A stretch of DNA of 13,143 nt. It comes from a virus (taxonomy: Duplodnaviria > Heunggongvirae > Uroviricota > Caudoviricetes). The translations under genes were made by a program, and so were the position numbers. The notes beneath the pieces are model-generated. The model did no database searches. It worked only from the letters and a program-made list of their open reading frames with translations, and was not told the DNA's origin. The stretch lies in the IMG/VR virus record IMGVR_UViG_2617270950_000005, positions 1 through 13,143 of that record. The stretch is one strand, 5' to 3'. Position 1 is the first letter of the stretch; each line of letters begins with the position of its first letter. Positions 3,102 to 13,143 of this stretch are shown one piece after another.

Positions 3102-3632
3102 CTAACCCGCTTTAGATTCTACCGGATTTGATTGCCTACTTGTCTCGGTTTTTTCCAAAATCTCTCTGACGCAATCGTCTGGCATATCTACAATCATCAA
3201 CGCAGCCAGGCGCTTCCTGCCTTCTAGTTGTAATAAATCCTGGTTTTCTTTATTCAGCAGTGTCAGAACCGTCTCCACACCTTTGCGAGCAAGGAGATTG
3301 GTTAACTGTTCTCGTTCGTCTTTCGTAAGGAATGAAAGCATCTGTGTAAGCTGATCTCCCTTATCACCAGAACAACCAAAATTACCATAAATACCAATAT
3401 CGTTTGGTAATTCACCCTTGCCCTCTTTAAGCCACTCAAGACTAACGCCTTCACTTTCAGAAATTCGTATAAGGATACTTTCTCTGGGGGCTGGTTGTGT
3501 TTGTCCTCCCTTGAAATAGCTGTTTAATGTGTTGATATTGATTCCCCACGCTCTGGCAGCTGCACTTCTTGAAGGGTAGCGCTTTGTAAGCATTCCAATA
3601 CGTTCAATAACAGGTTCTTTTCCCTGCGACAT
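3102..3632 (-). CDS. c: Mu-type repressor (c-like), about 176 aa
   Basis: Leftward ORF divergent from ner, the same position as Mu c. Start taken at ATG (CAT 3630-3632) with AGAGGT 6 nt upstream; the longer track ORF reaching 3707 is an unsupported N-terminal extension. N-terminal region (RIGMLTKRYPSRSAAARAWGININTLNSYFKGG) looks like an HTH. Confidence 0.65.
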   Translation of the reverse strand: MSQGKEPVIERIGMLTKRYPSRSAAARAWGININTLNSYFKGGQTQPAPRESILIRISESEGVSLEWLKEGKGELPNDIGIYGNFGCSGDKGDQLTQMLSFLTKDEREQLTNLLARKGVETVLTLLNKENQDLLQLEGRKRLAALMIVDMPDDCVREILEKTETSRQSNPVESKAG

Positions 3633-3707
3633 AAAGATACCTCTTGGTGCTTTTCTAAGGAAAGGTTTCTTTCTATTTATCCAATTGAAAAATAAGGATA
3701 AAAGCAA

Positions 3708-4072: not shown

Positions 4073-6163
4073 ATGTATGTCATTGCAAAAGAACTGATTG
4101 GCGCGCCCGGAATGCCTGCTACAACAAAAGGTATTCGCCAGGCATTACAACGTTACGTACAAGGGAAAAGCTGTTGTTCCCGTCGTCGCTCAGGCTCTAA
4201 AGCAACTGAATACAGCATCGACTGTTTACCTGAAGTGACGCAGCAGGCATTACGTGAACGCTACGCCCTGCAACTGATGACGCAAAAAGCCGATGAATCA
4301 CCGGCTCCGGTGGTGACAAAGGCCAGACGCTCACCTGCCGTGGTTGATGCGGTGGAGGCATATCGCGGATCACCCCAACTGATGGTCGAACGCCTCAATG
4401 CCCTGACTGAAAACCAACGTAAAGTGGCAGAGGCACGAATAGCGATCGTCAGCGAGGTGCTGAAAATCGCGCAACAACCCGGCTTTAGTTGCGCTAAGGC
4501 TATCCGGTTCCTCGTTAACAGCCTGGCACGATCACAACTGGACGAGCGCATTGTGGCAATGGTTGAGACGGCGAACGCCAAAAAGGGAAACAGCCGCGCG
4601 TTGAGTGAAATCACGCTGAAACGCTGGATTGCGGCCTTTAACAAGGCACAGAACGCCGCTGAACGCCTGCTTTTACTGGCACCGGGTAAACGCCAGGAAA
4701 TAAAAGCCGAAGATATTAACTGGCTGCCCGAATTTCTGGCGCAGTATCGCCAGTCAAACGGCCGACCAATGACCGAGGCTTACGAGGATTTTGTTGCTGA
4801 ATGGCAGCACCGGCACGCTGATGAGCCTTATATGCTCGATATCATGCCCTCTTATGACACCATTCGCCGCGCAATGAAGAAACTGCCGGAAGTGGTGAAA
4901 CAAAAAGGCCGGGTAACTGGCAGTGAATACCGTCAGCTTGAGGGATTCACGCGCCGCGACTGGTCCAGAATGCCGGTGAATTATGTCTGGATTGGTGACG
5001 GTCACGGCATGAAGCTGAAATGCGCGCACCCGGTTCACGGGCGGCCATTCGCACCGGAAGTGACCTTTGTTATCGACGGTGGCACGCGCTTTGTGGTGGG
5101 CTGGAGTCTTGACCTGGCTGAAAATGTTTTCGCCGTAGCCGGTGCCATACAGCACGGTATTCGCCATCATGGCAAACCGTTTCTGTATTACTCGGATAAT
5201 GGCTCCGGGGAAACCGCCGACGTCCTGGATAAGGAGATTGTGGGGATACTGCCACGACTGGGGATTAATCACCCGACAGGGATTGCCGGTAATCCGCAGG
5301 GACGGGGCATTATCGAACGGCTTAACCGCACATTACCGATGCGCATAGCCCGTAAATACCGCACCTATTTCGGGAAAGGAGCAGATCGCGAGACGTTACG
5401 TAAAACCAACCGCGATTTACGCTCGGCATTCAGTGCCCTGCAACAGGGCAAACGGCTGAACGCCCGGCAGCAGTCAGCGATGCGTGATTTACCGTCCTGG
5501 TCTGAACTGATTGATGCCATTCGTGACGGTGTTGAGTGGTACAACAACCGGCCGCACGATGAATTACCCATGAAGCCGAACGGTAAACATTACAGCCCGG
5601 CGGAGTTCAGAAAAAAACGCCTGGCGGAAGAGGACACGGAAATTGAATGGCTGTCCGATGTTGAACTGCGGGATATGTTCCGGCCGATGGTGGAGCGCCC
5701 TGTAAGACGCTGTGAAATACGCTGGCTGAATAATATTTACTACGCGCCCGAGCTGCGTGACGAGCATGGCCGTAAGGTACTTATCAGCTATGACATTCAT
5801 GATGCCGAACGAATTACCGTGCGCCGCCCGGATGGCAGCGTGATTTGCGAGGCGGTATGGGACGGCAATAAACGCGAAGCCTTCCCTGTCAGCGCGGAAT
5901 ACTACAAACAGCAGCAGCGCCTTAAAGGCATGCGTAAACGCGCAGAGGAAAAAATCCGTGATGCCGAGGATGAGGTTGTCAACGTGCTGGAGCACAAGCC
6001 GCAGGAGCCCTGGCTGGAAAACATATACCGCCCTGTGGGTAATACGGTGACCGTTCAGCAACCGGTCGCTGACGATGAACCTGATGAAGAATACGAGCGT
6101 AATTTCCAGCGGGGATTGCAACTGCTCGAAGCGAAATTAAAAGAAAGTGATCCGCTGGCCTGA
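4073..6163 (+). CDS. A: MuA-like DDE transposase, 696 aa
   Basis: Large ORF with candidate DDE residues in WIGDGHGMK, YYSDNGSG and GIIERLNRT contexts. Size and position match Mu transposase A. Confidence 0.9.
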   Translation: MYVIAKELIGAPGMPATTKGIRQALQRYVQGKSCCSRRRSGSKATEYSIDCLPEVTQQALRERYALQLMTQKADESPAPVVTKARRSPAVVDAVEAYRGSPQLMVERLNALTENQRKVAEARIAIVSEVLKIAQQPGFSCAKAIRFLVNSLARSQLDERIVAMVETANAKKGNSRALSEITLKRWIAAFNKAQNAAERLLLLAPGKRQEIKAEDINWLPEFLAQYRQSNGRPMTEAYEDFVAEWQHRHADEPYMLDIMPSYDTIRRAMKKLPEVVKQKGRVTGSEYRQLEGFTRRDWSRMPVNYVWIGDGHGMKLKCAHPVHGRPFAPEVTFVIDGGTRFVVGWSLDLAENVFAVAGAIQHGIRHHGKPFLYYSDNGSGETADVLDKEIVGILPRLGINHPTGIAGNPQGRGIIERLNRTLPMRIARKYRTYFGKGADRETLRKTNRDLRSAFSALQQGKRLNARQQSAMRDLPSWSELIDAIRDGVEWYNNRPHDELPMKPNGKHYSPAEFRKKRLAEEDTEIEWLSDVELRDMFRPMVERPVRRCEIRWLNNIYYAPELRDEHGRKVLISYDIHDAERITVRRPDGSVICEAVWDGNKREAFPVSAEYYKQQQRLKGMRKRAEEKIRDAEDEVVNVLEHKPQEPWLENIYRPVGNTVTVQQPVADDEPDEEYERNFQRGLQLLEAKLKESDPLA

Positions 6164-8530: not shown

Positions 8531-9061
8531 ATGGCAAAACGCGTTACAAAATTAAAGGCTGTAGCCGAGGCCGCACCGCAGACCCGCGAAGAAGTCAGCC
8601 GCGATATCCGCACCCTGGGCGATATTCAGCGAGAGGCGCTGCGCCTGGAAACGGCGATGAATGATGAAGTGGCAGAAATCACCGCCCGTTATACGCCGCA
8701 GATTGAAAATCTTAAAAAGCAAATCAAAGTGCTTTTTAAAGGGATTCAGGACTGGTGTAAAACCAACCGTGATGAGCTGACGAACGGCGGCAAAACCAAA
8801 ACTGCCAATCTGACCACCGGAACGGTGTCATGGCGGCTGGGAACGCCATCATGCAGCGTCAGCCGTGATGTGGAAGGTGTGATTGACACGCTGCGCCGTA
8901 TGGGGCTTGAGCGATTCATCCGCACGAAAGAGGAAGTGAACAAGGAAGCCGTCCTGGCGGAGCCGGATGCGGTGAAAGGCATTGCCGGTATAAAGGTGAA
9001 TAAAGGCGCTGAAAGTTTTTATGTCGAGCCTTTTGAACAGGATGCCGGACTGAATAAATAA
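8531..9061 (+). CDS. gam: Gam-like host-nuclease inhibitor (Ku-like DNA-end-binding protein), 176 aa
   Basis: Strong resemblance along its length to Mu Gam as recalled (…RLETAMNDEVAEI…NRDELTNGGKTKTANLTTGTVSWRL…RFIRTKEEVNKEAVL…EPFEQDAGL). Confidence 0.9.
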   Translation: MAKRVTKLKAVAEAAPQTREEVSRDIRTLGDIQREALRLETAMNDEVAEITARYTPQIENLKKQIKVLFKGIQDWCKTNRDELTNGGKTKTANLTTGTVSWRLGTPSCSVSRDVEGVIDTLRRMGLERFIRTKEEVNKEAVLAEPDAVKGIAGIKVNKGAESFYVEPFEQDAGLNK

Positions 9062-9158
9062 CACCGCATTAATTATTTAAATATCACTTCATTTTAATTA
9101 TGGCGCTCGCGTCAGGGGACTGCTTGCGCCTGAAAGCTGAAAATAAGGAATCGGAAAT

Positions 9159-9701
9159 ATGGCATATTTTTATTTCAAATTAGACCGTGTGCAGACAAAT
9201 AAATATTTCACCAAATATCAACAGGCTGTTTTACCGCTACGCAACAGTATTCTTCGGACATTACTGAAAAATACAGGCGCTGCCGGATTGCGCTTAAAGC
9301 CGTTCGCCATGGACAGAATCAGTGAGTTTTATTTTGCCGGTGCTCTGCCTGCGGGCTGGCGTAAGCGCGATGATGTGGCTTTTATCGGTGGCGGACAGTG
9401 CTTTATAGCCAGACCTGATGAGTCATGCCCTGAAGGACCGGCGATTGCCGCAATGATTGAAGCCGCTGAACGCGAGTTAAGAAAGCGTCCTGATTTCCTT
9501 GTCTGGCTCTGTGAAAAGCTGGGGGTAATGAGAATCCCCTCCATGTTTAACACGGACTCCTGGTGGACCCCTTCGTTCTCCCGTGATGCCCTGTGCGTGG
9601 TGTTTAAAGTGGGCGCTTATGGCAGGGGAATAAAAGGATGTATTCCTGAAGAATGCCAGGAAATTAAACATTCTGAATATGTGGCGCTGACGGAGGAATA
9701 A
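9159..9701 (+). CDS. Hypothetical protein, 180 aa (accessory ORF A)
   Basis: ORF follows AAGGA and the only sizeable intergenic gap (97 bp) in the early operon. AT-rich 5' end. No recognisable motif. Confidence 0.55.
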   Translation: MAYFYFKLDRVQTNKYFTKYQQAVLPLRNSILRTLLKNTGAAGLRLKPFAMDRISEFYFAGALPAGWRKRDDVAFIGGGQCFIARPDESCPEGPAIAAMIEAAERELRKRPDFLVWLCEKLGVMRIPSMFNTDSWWTPSFSRDALCVVFKVGAYGRGIKGCIPEECQEIKHSEYVALTEE

Positions 9702-9704
9702 TTC

Positions 9705-10238
9705 ATGATTGATGCAAAAGTGCTTGAAGGGGTTAAAAACTGGCTGAGTATTTACGGGCGTCTGACCTGCGGCGTACTGGCTGAAAAAATGAATATGCCG
9801 CCATCCTCCATGGTTTATTTTCTGCGTGATGCGGTTGATGCCGGGGTGCTGACGGAATGTAACGGTTTTTATGATATTCCGCGTTCCCGCCCGGTGCAGC
9901 CGATTCGTCGCAAATGCAGACAGGAATCTGCGGCTGATGATGTTCAGTGGTGCAGCTTCAGAAAATCCCTGCCATGGATTGAGGGGCATGATATTCCGTC
10001 GATGGCGTGGGAATTTGCTCAGGGCGTTCTGACCTGTGAAACCGTTTATGTGGTGGCTGAAGTTGATGAGCAGGCCATGAAAGAAGGCGTGCCCCAGTTT
10101 GTGATGGCGTATATCGACATTCGCCTGGGTGTCATCATCTGCGGTTTAAGCGGCTGGAATATCACCGCGCGTGTTCTGCGCTACCTGATTGTTGACCGGA
10201 CAGCAGCGCCTGCCGGGATATCTGCGGAGGTGGCGTAA
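9705..10238 (+). CDS. Hypothetical protein, 177 aa, with possible N-terminal winged-helix DNA-binding domain (accessory ORF B)
   Basis: 3-nt gap from ORF A. N-terminal 60 aa (…GVKNWLSIYGRLTCGVLAEKMNMPPSSMVYFLRDAVDAGVLTE) has a wHTH-like pattern. C-terminal half has no known motif. Confidence 0.55.
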   Translation: MIDAKVLEGVKNWLSIYGRLTCGVLAEKMNMPPSSMVYFLRDAVDAGVLTECNGFYDIPRSRPVQPIRRKCRQESAADDVQWCSFRKSLPWIEGHDIPSMAWEFAQGVLTCETVYVVAEVDEQAMKEGVPQFVMAYIDIRLGVIICGLSGWNITARVLRYLIVDRTAAPAGISAEVA

Positions 10239-10753
10239 TGTTCTTTAAAACATCAAACCCTTCCGCGCTGGCTGCGTGGCAAAAATACCAGCAGGACTGC
10301 CAGACGGTAAAAGATGAGGCGAAACGCCTTGAGGCCGTGCTGAATGTTGCGTGCCGGTCGGTATTTGAATTCAGTATCAGTGGTTTTTGTTTTAAGGGAC
10401 TGCGTTTTACGGAGGACAAATATCCTTTTCATCGCGACTTATGGCGAAAACCGACTGCGTCGAATGGCTGGAGCTGCACACCGCGCACATCACGTATCCC
10501 TAAAGCCCTGCGTGTTGCCTCTGATGAACTGAACAGTCTGTGGCGTGAATATTCGCCCGTCACGTATGCCAGAACCGATGCCCTGTTGTTCTGGCTGGGT
10601 ATTGACTTCTCAGCAATATTGTATGGTCCCGTGAACTGGTTCTGCGTTGACAATGTGATTTATCTTCAGTGCGAAGATGATTCCGCAAAACGGAAAATGA
10701 CCGAAATTCTGTCTGATGAGTTTTATGCTGCCGAAAAGCGAGTCAGGGGGTGA
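10238..10753 (+). CDS. Hypothetical protein, 171 aa (accessory ORF C)
   Basis: TAATG stop/start overlap with ORF B indicates translational coupling. No recognisable motif. Confidence 0.55.
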   Translation: MFFKTSNPSALAAWQKYQQDCQTVKDEAKRLEAVLNVACRSVFEFSISGFCFKGLRFTEDKYPFHRDLWRKPTASNGWSCTPRTSRIPKALRVASDELNSLWREYSPVTYARTDALLFWLGIDFSAILYGPVNWFCVDNVIYLQCEDDSAKRKMTEILSDEFYAAEKRVRG

Positions 10754-10756
10754 TGT

Positions 10757-11308
10757 ATGATGATTTTACAACACATGGGGCGAAAAGGTCGTACACCCGC
10801 TCATGTCCGCGCGTGGACACCTGAAGAAGATGCGCTACTGATTGCGCTTTATTCATCCACCCCGGTTAAGGATATTGCTGCCAGAATAAAAAGAACTGTC
10901 TGGGCTGTATATAACCGGACTGGTGTATTGCGCAGTTCATACCCGGAGTTACTGAAATATAAACACCCAAGATTTACACCTGATGAAGATAAGTTTATTC
11001 GAAAAAATGCCAGAACAATGACCTGCCAGCAAATGGGAGAATATCTCGGACGTAATAAAGATTCTGTCAGATGTCGGGCAGGAATGATTGGTGCTGGATT
11101 AACAAAGTGCGGAGAGTTACGCCCCGGCACGCGCATATCTGATGATGATGTACGTCTTATACGTGCGCTGCGTGATTCCGATTACCCACGCCGTCTGTCA
11201 TTCCGGGAAATTGGCGAAAAGTTTGGAATATCTGAACATTCTGCTCACGCAGTTTATTACCGTCGCCGGACTGCCGAGGACGCTGTATTACGGGAGTTAA
11301 CGCCATGA
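10757..11308 (+). CDS. Hypothetical DNA-binding protein with three HTH-like repeats (Myb/SANT-like W-TPEED motifs), 183 aa (accessory ORF D)
   Basis: Internal repeats RAWTPEEDALLIALY…, PRFTPDEDKFIRKN…, and ISDDDVRLIRALRD…LSFREIGEKFGIS…. RBS AGGGGG before ATG 10757. Confidence 0.55.
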   Translation: MMILQHMGRKGRTPAHVRAWTPEEDALLIALYSSTPVKDIAARIKRTVWAVYNRTGVLRSSYPELLKYKHPRFTPDEDKFIRKNARTMTCQQMGEYLGRNKDSVRCRAGMIGAGLTKCGELRPGTRISDDDVRLIRALRDSDYPRRLSFREIGEKFGISEHSAHAVYYRRRTAEDAVLRELTP

Positions 11309-11634
11309 TAACGACCTTATTTGTTGAATCAGATGAACCTCTTGTGTGTGCCGCCGGAATGCCGCTCTGTGGCGGAACGCTGACCGGTGTTTATTTCGGG
11401 GATTTACGCGGTTATCCCTGGCATTCACTGAATGATGCTTTCCCACCTGATATGGAGGCTGTCGTGCTGATTGTTCAGTATGGTCACCGTCAGGAGCTGC
11501 GCATCGGCCATATGGGGTATGAAGGCTTTTTTGTTGATGAAGAAACCGGAGCCTGCCTTGAAGATGAAGACGGACAGGTGACGCACTGGTGTCATATTTC
11601 GGCTTTACCGGAATTACGGGAGGTGAATGCGTGA
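11305..11634 (+). CDS. DUF551-like phage protein, 109 aa (accessory ORF E)
   Basis: ATGA overlap with ORF D. C-terminal …DGQVTHWCHISALPE resembles the DUF551 signature (…THW.PLPEPP) common in enterobacterial prophage accessory proteins. Confidence 0.5.
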   Translation: MITTLFVESDEPLVCAAGMPLCGGTLTGVYFGDLRGYPWHSLNDAFPPDMEAVVLIVQYGHRQELRIGHMGYEGFFVDEETGACLEDEDGQVTHWCHISALPELREVNA

Positions 11635-11981
11635 GAAGTTATATTGATAATGAAAAGCTGGAGACAATAAGCGACTGTCTTAGCTTGCTGGCAAAAATCA
11701 AAGAAACTATTGAAGAGATTAAATTTCAGCTTGAATACGCACCATGTGGCGATGATGCATGGCGTAATGCTGCCAGAAAAGCACTGGCTGTCTTTCAGAA
11801 ACAACGCCGGGCTGTTGAATACCGCCTTGCTGTATTGCGCCAGGAGGAAAAGGAAAGAAATATAAGACGTCATGAACGCGTTAATGATTTCCTTGTTCGT
11901 GAATTAAAAGAGCGCGTGCCGGAGTCGGTATTTTTTGAATGTGAGGCTATAGCCCGTAGCAAAGCACTGGAAACAGATTAA
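11631..11981 (+). CDS. Hypothetical coiled-coil protein, about 116 aa (accessory ORF F)
   Basis: GTG 11631 lies 5 nt after GGGAGGTG and overlaps the ORF E stop (GTGA). The alternative ATG 11589 would overlap ORF E by 45 bp. Charged heptad-like sequence (…LAVLRQEEKERNIRRHERVNDFLVRELKER…). Confidence 0.45.
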   Translation: MRSYIDNEKLETISDCLSLLAKIKETIEEIKFQLEYAPCGDDAWRNAARKALAVFQKQRRAVEYRLAVLRQEEKERNIRRHERVNDFLVRELKERVPESVFFECEAIARSKALETD

Positions 11982-11996
11982 GCAGGCAGGTGAATA

Positions 11997-12305
11997 ATGA
12001 GTATTGAATTAAGATCGTCTTATGAATATCGCAAAATCCTTATCGCCGGAGGCATGAAACCGGAAGATGCAGAGAAATTCGTTTCTTTTATGGATAAAGA
12101 ATGTGACAAGCGGGATATGCCAGAAATTATTATGGATGACATGATTCTGGATTCAGCCGTGGCGTTAAGTCCGTTATGGATTGTGCATACTCTTGCGGAA
12201 ATAGCTAAAAGAAGTGACAAGCAGGCGGCTGTCGCCGCCCTGCGATTACTGGCTGAATTAAGTTGTTCAGTCAATCCCAATACGTTCTTTGACGAACCTG
12301 GTTAA
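11997..12305 (+). CDS. Hypothetical acidic protein, 102 aa (accessory ORF G)
   Basis: ATG preceded by AGGTGA. AT-rich. Its 3' end overlaps the convergent minus-strand ORF by 39 bp. Confidence 0.5.
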   Translation: MSIELRSSYEYRKILIAGGMKPEDAEKFVSFMDKECDKRDMPEIIMDDMILDSAVALSPLWIVHTLAEIAKRSDKQAAVAALRLLAELSCSVNPNTFFDEPG

Positions 12306-12677
12306 CATTGATTTGGTAACTTCTTTAATTAGATCAAATGGTGCGTCTGTAAACTCCTTTTTGATTCTTTCAAGGATTGGTTTTTTTCTCAGGGCGTTAG
12401 CTAAATCATGCCCCTGCTGGGTAAGCATAATGGGCGTGTTTCTGAAACCAACGCCCAGAGAATGGAAAAAGAAACCAATATATTTGGGTGTTTCTGACTG
12501 CATATCACCATTAACAATTGAGCCATTATCAGCGAGAAGCATAAGATGAAAAACTTTTTTATCCTTTTCCTCTCCTTCTGCCTCAGCCATGCCCAGATCC
12601 TGTAGTGTAAGGAAAGGTGTTTCAGCATCCTGAAAAGTTGTGAGAATACTTAATACTTCATCGTAATCTATTTTCAT
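12267..12677 (-). CDS. Hypothetical protein, 136 aa; lone minus-strand, AT-rich moron inside the rightward early operon
   Basis: Clean 136-codon ORF antisense to the early operon, with AAAGGT about 7 nt upstream of its ATG. Visibly more AT-rich than flanking prophage DNA. No recognisable motif. Confidence 0.55.
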   Translation of the reverse strand: MKIDYDEVLSILTTFQDAETPFLTLQDLGMAEAEGEEKDKKVFHLMLLADNGSIVNGDMQSETPKYIGFFFHSLGVGFRNTPIMLTQQGHDLANALRKKPILERIKKEFTDAPFDLIKEVTKSMLTRFVKERIGID

Positions 12678-12741: not shown

Positions 12742-12945
12742 ATGAATCGCGCTTCCCTGATTACCTTAATACATGTCGCAAAACGCGATCTACAGCTTGA
12801 CCATGAGACCTACACATCCGTACTACTGGCAGCCACCGGCAAACCCAGTTGCCGGGATATGTCACCGGATGAGTTATCCCGCGTGCTGGATGTTTTCAAA
12901 AAACGCGGTTTTAAAGTGCGTCAGAAGCCGGTTACCGGAATATGA
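12742..12945 (+). CDS. gemA: GemA-like (Mu gp16 / DUF1018 family) protein, short form of 67 aa
   Basis: MNRASLITLIHVAKRDLQLDHETYTSVLLAATGKPSCRDMSPDELSRVLDVFKKRGF matches the conserved N-terminal GemA/DUF1018 pattern as recalled. The ORF then stops. Confidence 0.55.
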   Translation: MNRASLITLIHVAKRDLQLDHETYTSVLLAATGKPSCRDMSPDELSRVLDVFKKRGFKVRQKPVTGI

Positions 12946-13082
12946 ATGTGCTGGATGATATTCTCACGCCGCTGCGTATTTATGAAGGCGGTGCGCTGGA
13001 ATGTATTCTGAACCGTTATAAGCCTGCATGGCAGACGTTTATTTACGTTTATGCAAACAGCCATGAAGAGGAGACTATTTAA
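12942..13082 (+). CDS. Small ORF (46 aa) coupled to the gemA-like ORF by an ATGA overlap; possibly the frameshifted continuation of gemA
   Basis: ATG 12942 overlaps the TGA of the gemA-like ORF; ends at TAA 13080-13082. Below the 60-aa cutoff of the ORF track. No motif. Confidence 0.3.
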   Translation: MNVLDDILTPLRIYEGGALECILNRYKPAWQTFIYVYANSHEEETI

Positions 13083-13143
13083 TGTTTCATGTTGATAATA
13101 ATTCCGGCGTGGCGAATATGCCTGCGCTGGCACCGGCGCAGAG
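13082..13143 (+). CDS. 5' end of a further early-operon ORF that runs off the window
   Basis: TAATG overlap with the previous ORF. Begins MFHVDNNSGVANMPALAPAQ with no stop before the window end. Confidence 0.3.
   Translation, partial: MFHVDNNSGVANMPALAPAQ

Follow-up and report, generated by a model that had tools for sequence, protein, structure and literature searches.

The four tightly packed genes (ORFs A to D) that follow gam in the window, as we call the whole 13,143-nucleotide stretch of DNA analysed here, very likely represent an ordinary, mix-and-match part of a Mu-like prophage's early accessory region rather than a fixed four-protein machine. The prophage is hosted by E. coli and its gene order runs c repressor, ner, MuA, MuB, small ORFs, gam, A-D, E-G and gemA (Table 1), with the early region found in 188 of 5426 complete E. 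coli genomes (~3.5%), where it is annotated as hypothetical proteins. The original prediction saw no likeness between the four products and Mu proteins, a view that has to be revised: ORFs B and C correspond to the gp11/gp12 pair of phage Mu, conserved 1-nt overlap included, and the block is best recorded as the Mu gp11/gp12 segment of the semi-essential early region joined by two optional cassettes, ORFs A and D.

Table 1. Features of the prophage early region from gam to gemA, in order of position.
Feature	Position	Strand	Supporting data
gam (Mu Gam/Ku-like DNA-end-binding protein; upstream anchor)	8531..9061	+	Pfam PF07352 7e-42; 57% identity to Mu Gam
gam-A intergenic spacer, 97 nt, with Shine-Dalgarno-like AAGGA for ORF A	9062..9158	+	
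ORF A, 180 aa, DUF5420-like optional cassette (PHROG 2260)	9159..9701	+	
ORF B, 177 aa, orthologue of phage Mu gp11	9705..10238	+	67% identity, full length; PHROG 1949 3.7e-104
B residues 1-59, winged helix-turn-helix domain	9705..9881	+	
B residues 90-167, Gp11_C, small alpha/beta domain	9972..10205	+	Pfam PF25754 4.5e-40; pLDDT 93-98
ORF C, 171 aa, orthologue of phage Mu gp12 (PHROG 2314)	10238..10753	+	52% identity; PHROG 1.5e-80
ORF D, 183 aa, SANT/Myb- or homeodomain-like tandem HTH protein (PHROG 323)	10757..11308	+	
D HTH-like unit 1, residues 19-57	10811..10927	+	Pfam Myb families, residues 19-53; aligned to c-Myb repeat
D HTH-like unit 2, residues 73-112	10973..11092	+	PHROG 14101 6e-9 at 73-108; aligned to next c-Myb repeat
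D HTH-like unit 3, residues 127-170	11135..11266	+	HTH_AsnC-type 7e-4, HTH_10 1.5e-3, both sub-threshold
Downstream early ORF E	11305-11634	+	PHROG 6925; PGAP coordinates in JKHS016
Downstream early ORF F	11631-11981	+	PHROG 6158; PGAP coordinates in JKHS016
Downstream early ORF G	11997-12305	+	PHROG 1988; PGAP coordinates in JKHS016
ORF H, DUF2513-like	12267..12677	-	Pfam DUF2513 6.6e-5, sub-threshold; PGAP: DUF2513 domain-containing protein
Truncated gemA, 67 codons; downstream anchor	12742..12945	+	Pfam GemA 7e-11, profile positions 1-45 of 119

To place the block among its relatives, we collected loci with ORF B as query, without dereplication, and counted gene combinations over 68 of them. 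Eight patterns of presence and absence occur for ORFs A, C and D: B stands alone in 14 of the 68 loci, the Mu-type B-C pair occupies another 12, and the complete A-B-C-D arrangement, counting both A allele types, is found in 21 rather than in every Mu-like prophage. The spacing reflects the same variation, with a bimodal gam-B gap of either 100-148 bp (loci without A) or 646-669 bp and a B-to-gemA distance that ranges from 98 to 3369 bp. The description of the gam-to-gemA interval as a variable accessory region is thus borne out. Fast turnover at a fixed locus between close relatives is seen for A and D only, a behaviour that is not specific to anti-defence genes. A neighbouring gene in three of the loci (L056, L111 and L112) appeared MazG-like by eye and gave no Pfam match.

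ORF B is the conserved core of the block and the one constant gene of the gam-gemA interval in this B-anchored sample, being present in 80 of 80 IMG/VR loci, all of them retrieved with B itself. Because B served as the query, its constancy follows in part from the sampling, and any Mu-like phage that lacks gp11 would have escaped it. The protein is collinear with Mu gp11 over residues 1-177, N-terminal domain included (tblastn, 67% identity), and in its predicted model the N-terminus follows the order H1-(b1)-H2-H3-b2-b3 and matches known winged helix-turn-helix domains in structure. The winged-helix N-terminus proposed earlier therefore stands; the C-terminal part, taken at the time for an unknown domain, matches the Pfam family Gp11_C along the entire profile (136.3 bits against a cut-off of 27, positions 1-78 of 78). 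Gp11_C behaves as a module in its own right: in other Mu-like prophages it is fused to other N-termini, and in distant ones the proteins that carry it are encoded between gam (or DUF3164) and gemA, next to unrelated neighbours. A scan of genome contigs with the gp11 alignment returned one locus, in Citrobacter braakii, a pattern-based and narrow search that says little on distribution, and a concatenated B+C query for homologous proteins returned no match.

In phage Mu, gp11 (Mup11, formerly E10-E12) and gp12 (Mup12, formerly E13) belong to a stretch called semi-essential early (SEE), the genes of which are described as largely of unknown function (PMC3820752, PMC8705779, PMC4553209). The Mu records give neither of them a function, and on their assigned functions, as on the map positions of arm and cim, we found only general statements in the literature. 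Since the listing of the SEE region comprises arm (amplified replication of Mu) and cim (control of immunity) alongside kil, gam, sot and gemA/B (PMC4553209), ORF B, alone or together with gp12, might correspond to one of the SEE functions that are defined genetically yet unassigned, such as arm or cim, and bind DNA as an accessory factor in replication or regulation. Such a role would suit the conservation of B between gam and gemA, its winged helix and its dN/dS of 0.17, which makes it the most constrained of the four proteins. However, it is position only that ties gp11 to arm or cim, and neither the sequence searches nor the fold search with the B model, in which the winged helix masked the C-terminal domain, revealed a Gp11_C relative of known function; we consider the assignment a tentative one, with the balance tipped well against it.

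ORF C and Mu gp12 share 52% identity over residues 1-168, and both genes directly follow gp11 with overlapping stop and start codons (dN/dS 0.22 for ORF C). Indeed, the order of genes directly after gam and the 1-nt gp11/gp12 overlap are the same in Mu as for B-C here, and the position and opposite-strand orientation of ORF H match those of Mu gp15. Mu differs in that it lacks both ORF A, with a gam-gp11 gap of 98 nt, and ORF D, and carries gp13 and gp14 after gp12. Of the four proteins, B and C thus correspond to Mu proteins, themselves uncharacterised, and A and D do not.

For ORF A, which belongs to PHROG 2260 (7.7e-73), the closest counterparts lie in other Mu-like phages. It is 41% identical, over its full length, to SfMu YP_009152197, annotated as a 'DUF5420 family protein', and 38% identical to a Salmonella DUF5420 protein (P0014). 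ORF A itself gives no match to Pfam DUF5420 (PF17457; gathering threshold 26 bits) at an E-value of 0.1 or better, and with 15.0 and 15.6 bits its relatives P0014 and P0004 stay below that threshold, collinear with profile positions 86-181. Furthermore, the SfMu protein (gp11 in that phage) and its homologues in the Yersinia Mu-like phages vB_YpM_3, vB_YpM_23 and Tongde resemble ORF A in full-length identity (36-41%), in size (184 and 182 aa), in the C-terminal IKHSE..TEE signature, which is invariant in the family as IKHSE[FY][VI]A[LI]TEE, and in the position of their genes between gam and a gp11 homologue, from which they are separated by a 3-nt gap. In contrast to the intact ORF C here, gp12 is absent from the Yersinia phage and only truncated in SfMu. 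Structure prediction from a 9-sequence alignment yielded a confident alpha/beta fold for ORF A; a search of the PDB with this model returned no match, and the fold was met only in uncharacterised phage proteins, so that the DUF5420-like family has a predicted fold without a solved relative.

Among prophages that share gam and B at 92-98% identity, the A slot holds either a 91-100% identical allele, a 22-24% identical allele of the same family, or nothing, and at one locus two ORF A paralogues lie in tandem. ORF A is thus an optional cassette with quick turnover, and the allele replacement, loss and duplication seen at the DUF5420-like slot make it a candidate for host-interaction screens. A comparison of the A and C profiles gave an hhalign score of 22.6 over 153 columns, which was reached by one of 200 block shuffles, a control that took the place of a 30-replicate column shuffle that proved too coarse; jackhmmer searches that started from A and covered every ORF of the retrieved loci stopped short of the C family. 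On the strength of this one profile-profile comparison, the DUF5420-like protein and gp12, which flank gp11, are probably distant paralogues.

The allelic turnover of ORF A is the sole pointer, and no more than a hint, to a host-takeover or counter-defence role in this region. A, and perhaps C as well, could be an arms-race effector that binds a host or phage protein in anti-defence or superinfection, with B and D as unrelated DNA-binding early proteins. Beyond the changing occupancy of a slot between nearly constant neighbours, the tandem paralogues and the phage-restricted fold, such a role would agree with the dN/dS of ORF A (0.34, the highest among A-D) and with its invariant acidic C-terminal tail, which could serve as a docking motif. 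That dN/dS value nevertheless reflects purifying selection, the tie between A and C comes from a single profile comparison, and turnover of cassettes typifies phage accessory genes in general, irrespective of function. ORF A, the Gp11_C domain of B and ORF C show no homology to characterised proteins in Pfam, NCBIfam, PADLOC and PDB sequences or, for A and B, in fold searches; we hold the reading to be a minority possibility. The presence/absence and allele replacement of A and D at a fixed early-operon position in near-identical prophages likewise recall the anti-defence 'hot-spot' loci of temperate phages, from which A-D differ in that these searches revealed no homologue among described anti-defence proteins. 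It is also conceivable, if decidedly improbable, that the DUF5420-like proteins upstream of gp11 and the gp12-like proteins downstream of it form one fast-evolving, phage-only superfamily, the members of which act with gp11 as exchangeable subunits. Were this so, the flanking proteins would be specificity or effector subunits that, for example, counter a defence of the host or take control of one of its DNA transactions, and gam-A-gp11-gp12 would constitute a counter-defence locus of Mu-like phages not recognised before.

ORF D is an independently mobile cassette: a P2-like Citrobacter phage carries a 35% identical homologue in its early region in the absence of A, B and C, and the gene falls into two allele classes of ~97% and ~72% identity. 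Within our sample it is always accompanied by C (25 of 25 loci), and a functional link between C and D is therefore possible. The protein matches PHROG 323, 'transcriptional regulator, D5-like' (5.8e-52), and, marginally, Pfam Myb_DNA-binding (PF00249; 25.2 bits versus 24.4), with no single stretch passing on its own. At the profile level, two consecutive units align to c-Myb R2R3 (E 4.7e-5) and to the tandem-HTH chain 2lvs_A (7.5e-5), with E-values of 4.7e-5 to 2.7e-3 across c-Myb chains, and the self-similarity of the first two units reaches a z score of 3.3. The third unit shows a weak homeodomain match to 2da1_A (0.087). The three HTH-like stretches, candidates for tandem three-helix repeats, each have their own support from sequence and profiles, with weak internal similarity. 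ORF D differs from Myb/SANT R2R3 proteins in that it is encoded by a bacterial virus and has three putative units, of which the last looks nearer to AsnC- or homeodomain-type HTHs, and the regular spacing of tryptophans that marks Myb repeats is not evident in it. Both B and D are predicted from fold and profile to bind DNA. We propose that, on induction or infection, they would do so through their HTH domains and serve the early phase as accessory regulators or as factors that handle DNA, and that the small alpha/beta proteins A and C would act on host or phage partners.

The junctions within the block are tight, with a 3-nt gap at A/B, a 1-nt stop/start overlap at B/C and a similarly close C/D boundary, and both the A/B and the B/C arrangement recur across SfMu, the Yersinia phages and Mu, which would be consistent with A, B and C being genuinely coupled in translation. 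Taken together with the recurrence of A-B-C-D in 21 loci and the known accessory character of the region, this packing could suggest a single host-takeover or counter-defence module that acts as a unit. However, equal packing runs through the whole early operon, with ATGA overlaps at D/E and E/F, and the short gaps, overlaps and individual Shine-Dalgarno motifs would reflect the compactness of that operon rather than a special stoichiometric coupling of A-D. No internal promoter or terminator was detected, and the four genes are most likely transcribed within a long early operon with its start at ner. An obligate, co-inherited module is at odds with the eight combinations described above, with the solo occurrence of B, with Mu having only B-C, with the residence of D alone in a P2-like phage and with the clean presence/absence of A. 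PADLOC and NCBIfam gave no match to A-D, and Pfam, PHROG annotations and PDB sequences likewise revealed no likeness to characterised anti-defence or defence proteins. The earlier proposal of one functional unit is hence not supported, and we regard a module acting as a whole as very unlikely.

The mix-and-match block is here carried by a prophage with an internal deletion at gemA. Homology to the intact prophage stops at position 12938 and positions 12930-13143 match the tail region of related prophages, so that the deletion, which runs from within gemA to the tail region, has removed mor and the lysis and head genes. This loss could mean that A-D are inert cargo of a defective prophage, doing nothing in this particular genome, a reading that we consider improbable. 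All early ORFs are intact, the repressor, MuA and MuB included, and purifying selection acts on each of the A-D families, as judged by dN/dS. The deletion is recent, given that A-D are 99-100% identical to their counterparts in the apparently complete prophage of strain JKHS016. In addition, early transcription has been reported to proceed at a low level from the repressed Mu prophage (PMC3820752).

The finding is real but ordinary: located 3′ of gam, ORFs A–D comprise the gp11/gp12 part of a semi-essential early (SEE) region of Mu type together with two optional cassettes. All four ORFs fall in existing uncharacterised families and are common in E. coli. The coordinates and lengths of the four ORFs are exactly as originally predicted, as are the 3-nt gaps at A/B and C/D and the TAATG common to B and C. 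A Shine-Dalgarno-like motif lies 5-9 nt 5′ of each. A–D are real genes: comparison with 11-23 distinct natural alleles gives median dN/dS values of 0.34, 0.17, 0.22 and 0.29 for A, B, C and D, respectively. No promoter-like or terminator-like sites were found on the + strand within the block. Close packing is not peculiar to A–D, as from ner through G, one of the small early ORFs E, F and G 3′ of D, all junctions (PGAP starts) overlap or leave gaps of at most 15 nt, except for the 82 nt between MuA and MuB and the 97 nt between gam and A; ATGA overlaps lie at D/E and E/F.

Features of the window and of retrieved comparison loci (L-numbers; L003 is SfMu)
Feature	Position	Strand	Remark
E. coli chromosome	1-~2851		ydcC/ISEc5, pptA, yddH, nhoA, part of yddE
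Repressor	3102-3707	minus	
ner			after repressor in gene order
MuA	4073-6163		
MuB, then five small ORFs			5′ of gam
gam	8531-9061		
A	9159-9701		180 aa
B	9705-10238		177 aa
C	10238-10753		171 aa
D	10757-11308		183 aa
E, F, G			small ORFs downstream of D; F at 11589-11981
DUF2513-like ORF	12267-12677	minus	downstream of D
gemA start			downstream of D
DUF3164 protein in gam position	L006 4697-5335; L085 4135-4773; L111 3543-4163		Citrobacter-type and other distant Mu-like prophages
EEAADVEIM-motif protein	L056 4538-5116; L111 4520-5011; L112 4083-4580		
Tandem A-family paralogues	L085 4862-5991		182 aa and ~192 aa
Unannotated gap in SfMu	L003 7442-7970		3′ of gp11 homologue
SfMu gp12 homologue, N-terminally truncated	L003 7602-7970		122-aa ORF

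The claim that none of the four matches a Mu protein holds for A, for which no counterpart was found in Mu or D108, and fails for B and C. B is 67% identical to phage Mu gp11 across all 177 residues and matches PHROG 1949 (3.7e-104) and the Pfam ‘Phage Mu Gp11 C-terminal domain’ (Gp11_C, PF25754; 4.5e-40), while C is 52% identical to Mu gp12 over residues 1-168 and matches PHROG 2314 (1.5e-80); the 1-nt gp11/gp12 overlap of Mu recurs at B/C. These similarities identify B and C as the orthologues of gp11 and gp12, respectively, to neither of which the Mu records assign a function. In SfMu, the gap 3′ of the gp11 homologue holds an N-terminally truncated gp12 homologue, and the phage thus has a gp12 remnant that its record leaves unannotated.

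Across 1.84 billion representatives, an exhaustive HMMER search for Gp11_C yielded only 43 clusters, and no sequence relative was found in the PDB. In some clusters it is fused to two winged helices and in others to an N-terminus whose similarity to Ead/Ea22 is weak and below threshold; the domain thus behaves as a portable module. In Mu-like prophages, more distant Gp11_C proteins (domain identity 41-46%) are likewise encoded downstream of gam (or a DUF3164 gene) and upstream of gemA, next to neighbours unrelated to A or C. In Citrobacter-type and other distant Mu-like prophages, a DUF3164 protein (Pfam 5.2e-77) takes the place of Gam 5′ of the A/gp11 genes. Several of the distant relatives also encode a conserved protein of 163-192 aa, with the motif EEAADVEIM, from a gene lying downstream of gam (or DUF3164) and upstream of gp11; it resembled MazG by eye and returned no Pfam match at E 0.01 or better.

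The best lead in the region is the A-family slot. A belongs to PHROG 2260 (7.7e-73) and falls short of the Pfam threshold for DUF5420; SfMu and three Yersinia Mu-like phages encode, in the interval from gam to their gp11 homologue, a protein 36-41% identical to A over the full length, which is annotated in SfMu as DUF5420 family. Distances from gam to B are bimodal, at 100-148 bp without A and 646-669 bp with an A-family gene. Among prophages matching the window at 92-98% identity in gam and B, the slot shows three states: a window-type allele (91-100% identity), a 196-aa allele only 22-24% identical to A and clearly of the same family (N-terminal YFK, C-terminal IKHSEFIAITEE), or nothing. One Citrobacter-type IMG/VR prophage carries tandem A-family paralogues upstream of its gp11 homologue. 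The extreme C-terminus, IKHSE[FY][VI]A[LI]TEE, is invariant in alignment A3 across all A-family proteins, even 22%-identical alleles, and could serve as a docking or interaction motif.

C is probably a distant paralogue of A. Their family alignments are collinear end to end in hhalign (A 5-177 / C 2-165, 153 columns; score 22.6, P 0.0094), against 13.4 +/- 2.3 for 200 block-shuffled C alignments, one of which reached the observed score and none of which aligned over more than 110 columns. Both families share an N-terminal [FY]FK and a similar C-terminal helix (IKHSEYVALTEE versus ILSDEFYAAEKR); HMM-to-sequence searches returned no A–C connection.

Helix-turn-helix domains are present in B and D, as had been proposed. 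D falls in PHROG 323 (‘transcriptional regulator, D5-like’; 5.8e-52) and marginally passes Pfam Myb_DNA-binding, and its family profile hits both c-Myb R2R3 at E 4.7e-5 and 2lvs_A, a tandem-HTH chain, at 7.5e-5. A P2-like Citrobacter phage encodes a 35% identical homologue in its early region, between an ead/Ea22-like gene and a replication gene. Across loci L009-L043, D forms two allele classes (~95-100% and ~70-75% aa identity to the window); since prophages with differing D alleles have neighbouring C genes that are 86-95% identical, the classes indicate cassette replacement by recombination.

The neighbours of gp11 homologues were typed at 80 loci from IMG/VR and at one from a Citrobacter genome; B was the query, its constancy is therefore partly built into the sample, and counts are without dereplication. 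The expected variability of the gam-gemA interval was borne out: B-to-gemA distances range from 98 to 3369 bp, and the 68 loci with complete context fall into eight A/C/D combinations, namely B alone (14), A-B-C-D with window-type A (13), the Mu-type B-C (12), A-B (8), A′-B-C-D (8; A′ being the second A allele type), A′-B-C (5), A-B-C (4) and B-C-D (4). Within this sample, D is always accompanied by C (25/25 loci). These combinations show that A, C and D are gained and lost independently, which argues against an obligate four-protein system; the single functional unit of the original prediction is not supported.

No functionally informative match to A, C or Gp11_C was found in Pfam, NCBIfam, PADLOC or PDB sequences, and published accounts treat most Mu SEE genes as being of unknown function (PMC3820752, PMC8705779, PMC4553209); our literature search did not find map positions of the genetically defined SEE functions arm and cim relative to gp11/gp12. 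In a working model, B and D would be DNA-binding early proteins and A and C small effector-like proteins, with the conserved B a reasonable candidate for an SEE function still without a gene. A host-interaction or anti-defence gene would be expected to show the allele replacement, loss and duplication seen for A, a pattern equally typical of phage accessory genes generally.

The host flank (1-2851) is 100% identical to K-12 MG1655, and the left end of the transposable prophage begins just past ~2851, which places the insertion in or adjoining yddE. A prophage of E. coli JKHS016 shares the early region at 99.9% identity, and the region is found at >=80% coverage in 188 of the 5426 complete genomes of E. 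coli. PGAP labels A–C in them ‘hypothetical protein’; D in JKHS016 is a ‘SANT/Myb-like DNA-binding domain-containing protein’. Homology with the intact prophage of JKHS016 ends at 12938 within gemA, whose ORF stops after 67 codons (GemA profile positions 1-45/119), and 12930-13143 matches, in 222 genomes, the YmfQ-family/tail-protein region of related prophages; the element is therefore a deletion derivative, with a junction at ~12930-12938 (window 12742-13143) where gemA runs straight into that region. It lacks mor, the lysis and head genes and most of the tail genes, and its early region is intact. The DUF2513-like ORF and the 3′ end of ORF G overlap by 39 nt; the former shares position and orientation, though no similarity, with Mu gp15. 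For ORF F, ATG 11631 is probably the start rather than GTG 11589, because PGAP starts there and the PHROG 6158 match opens at residue 15; this start creates the ATGA overlap with ORF E.
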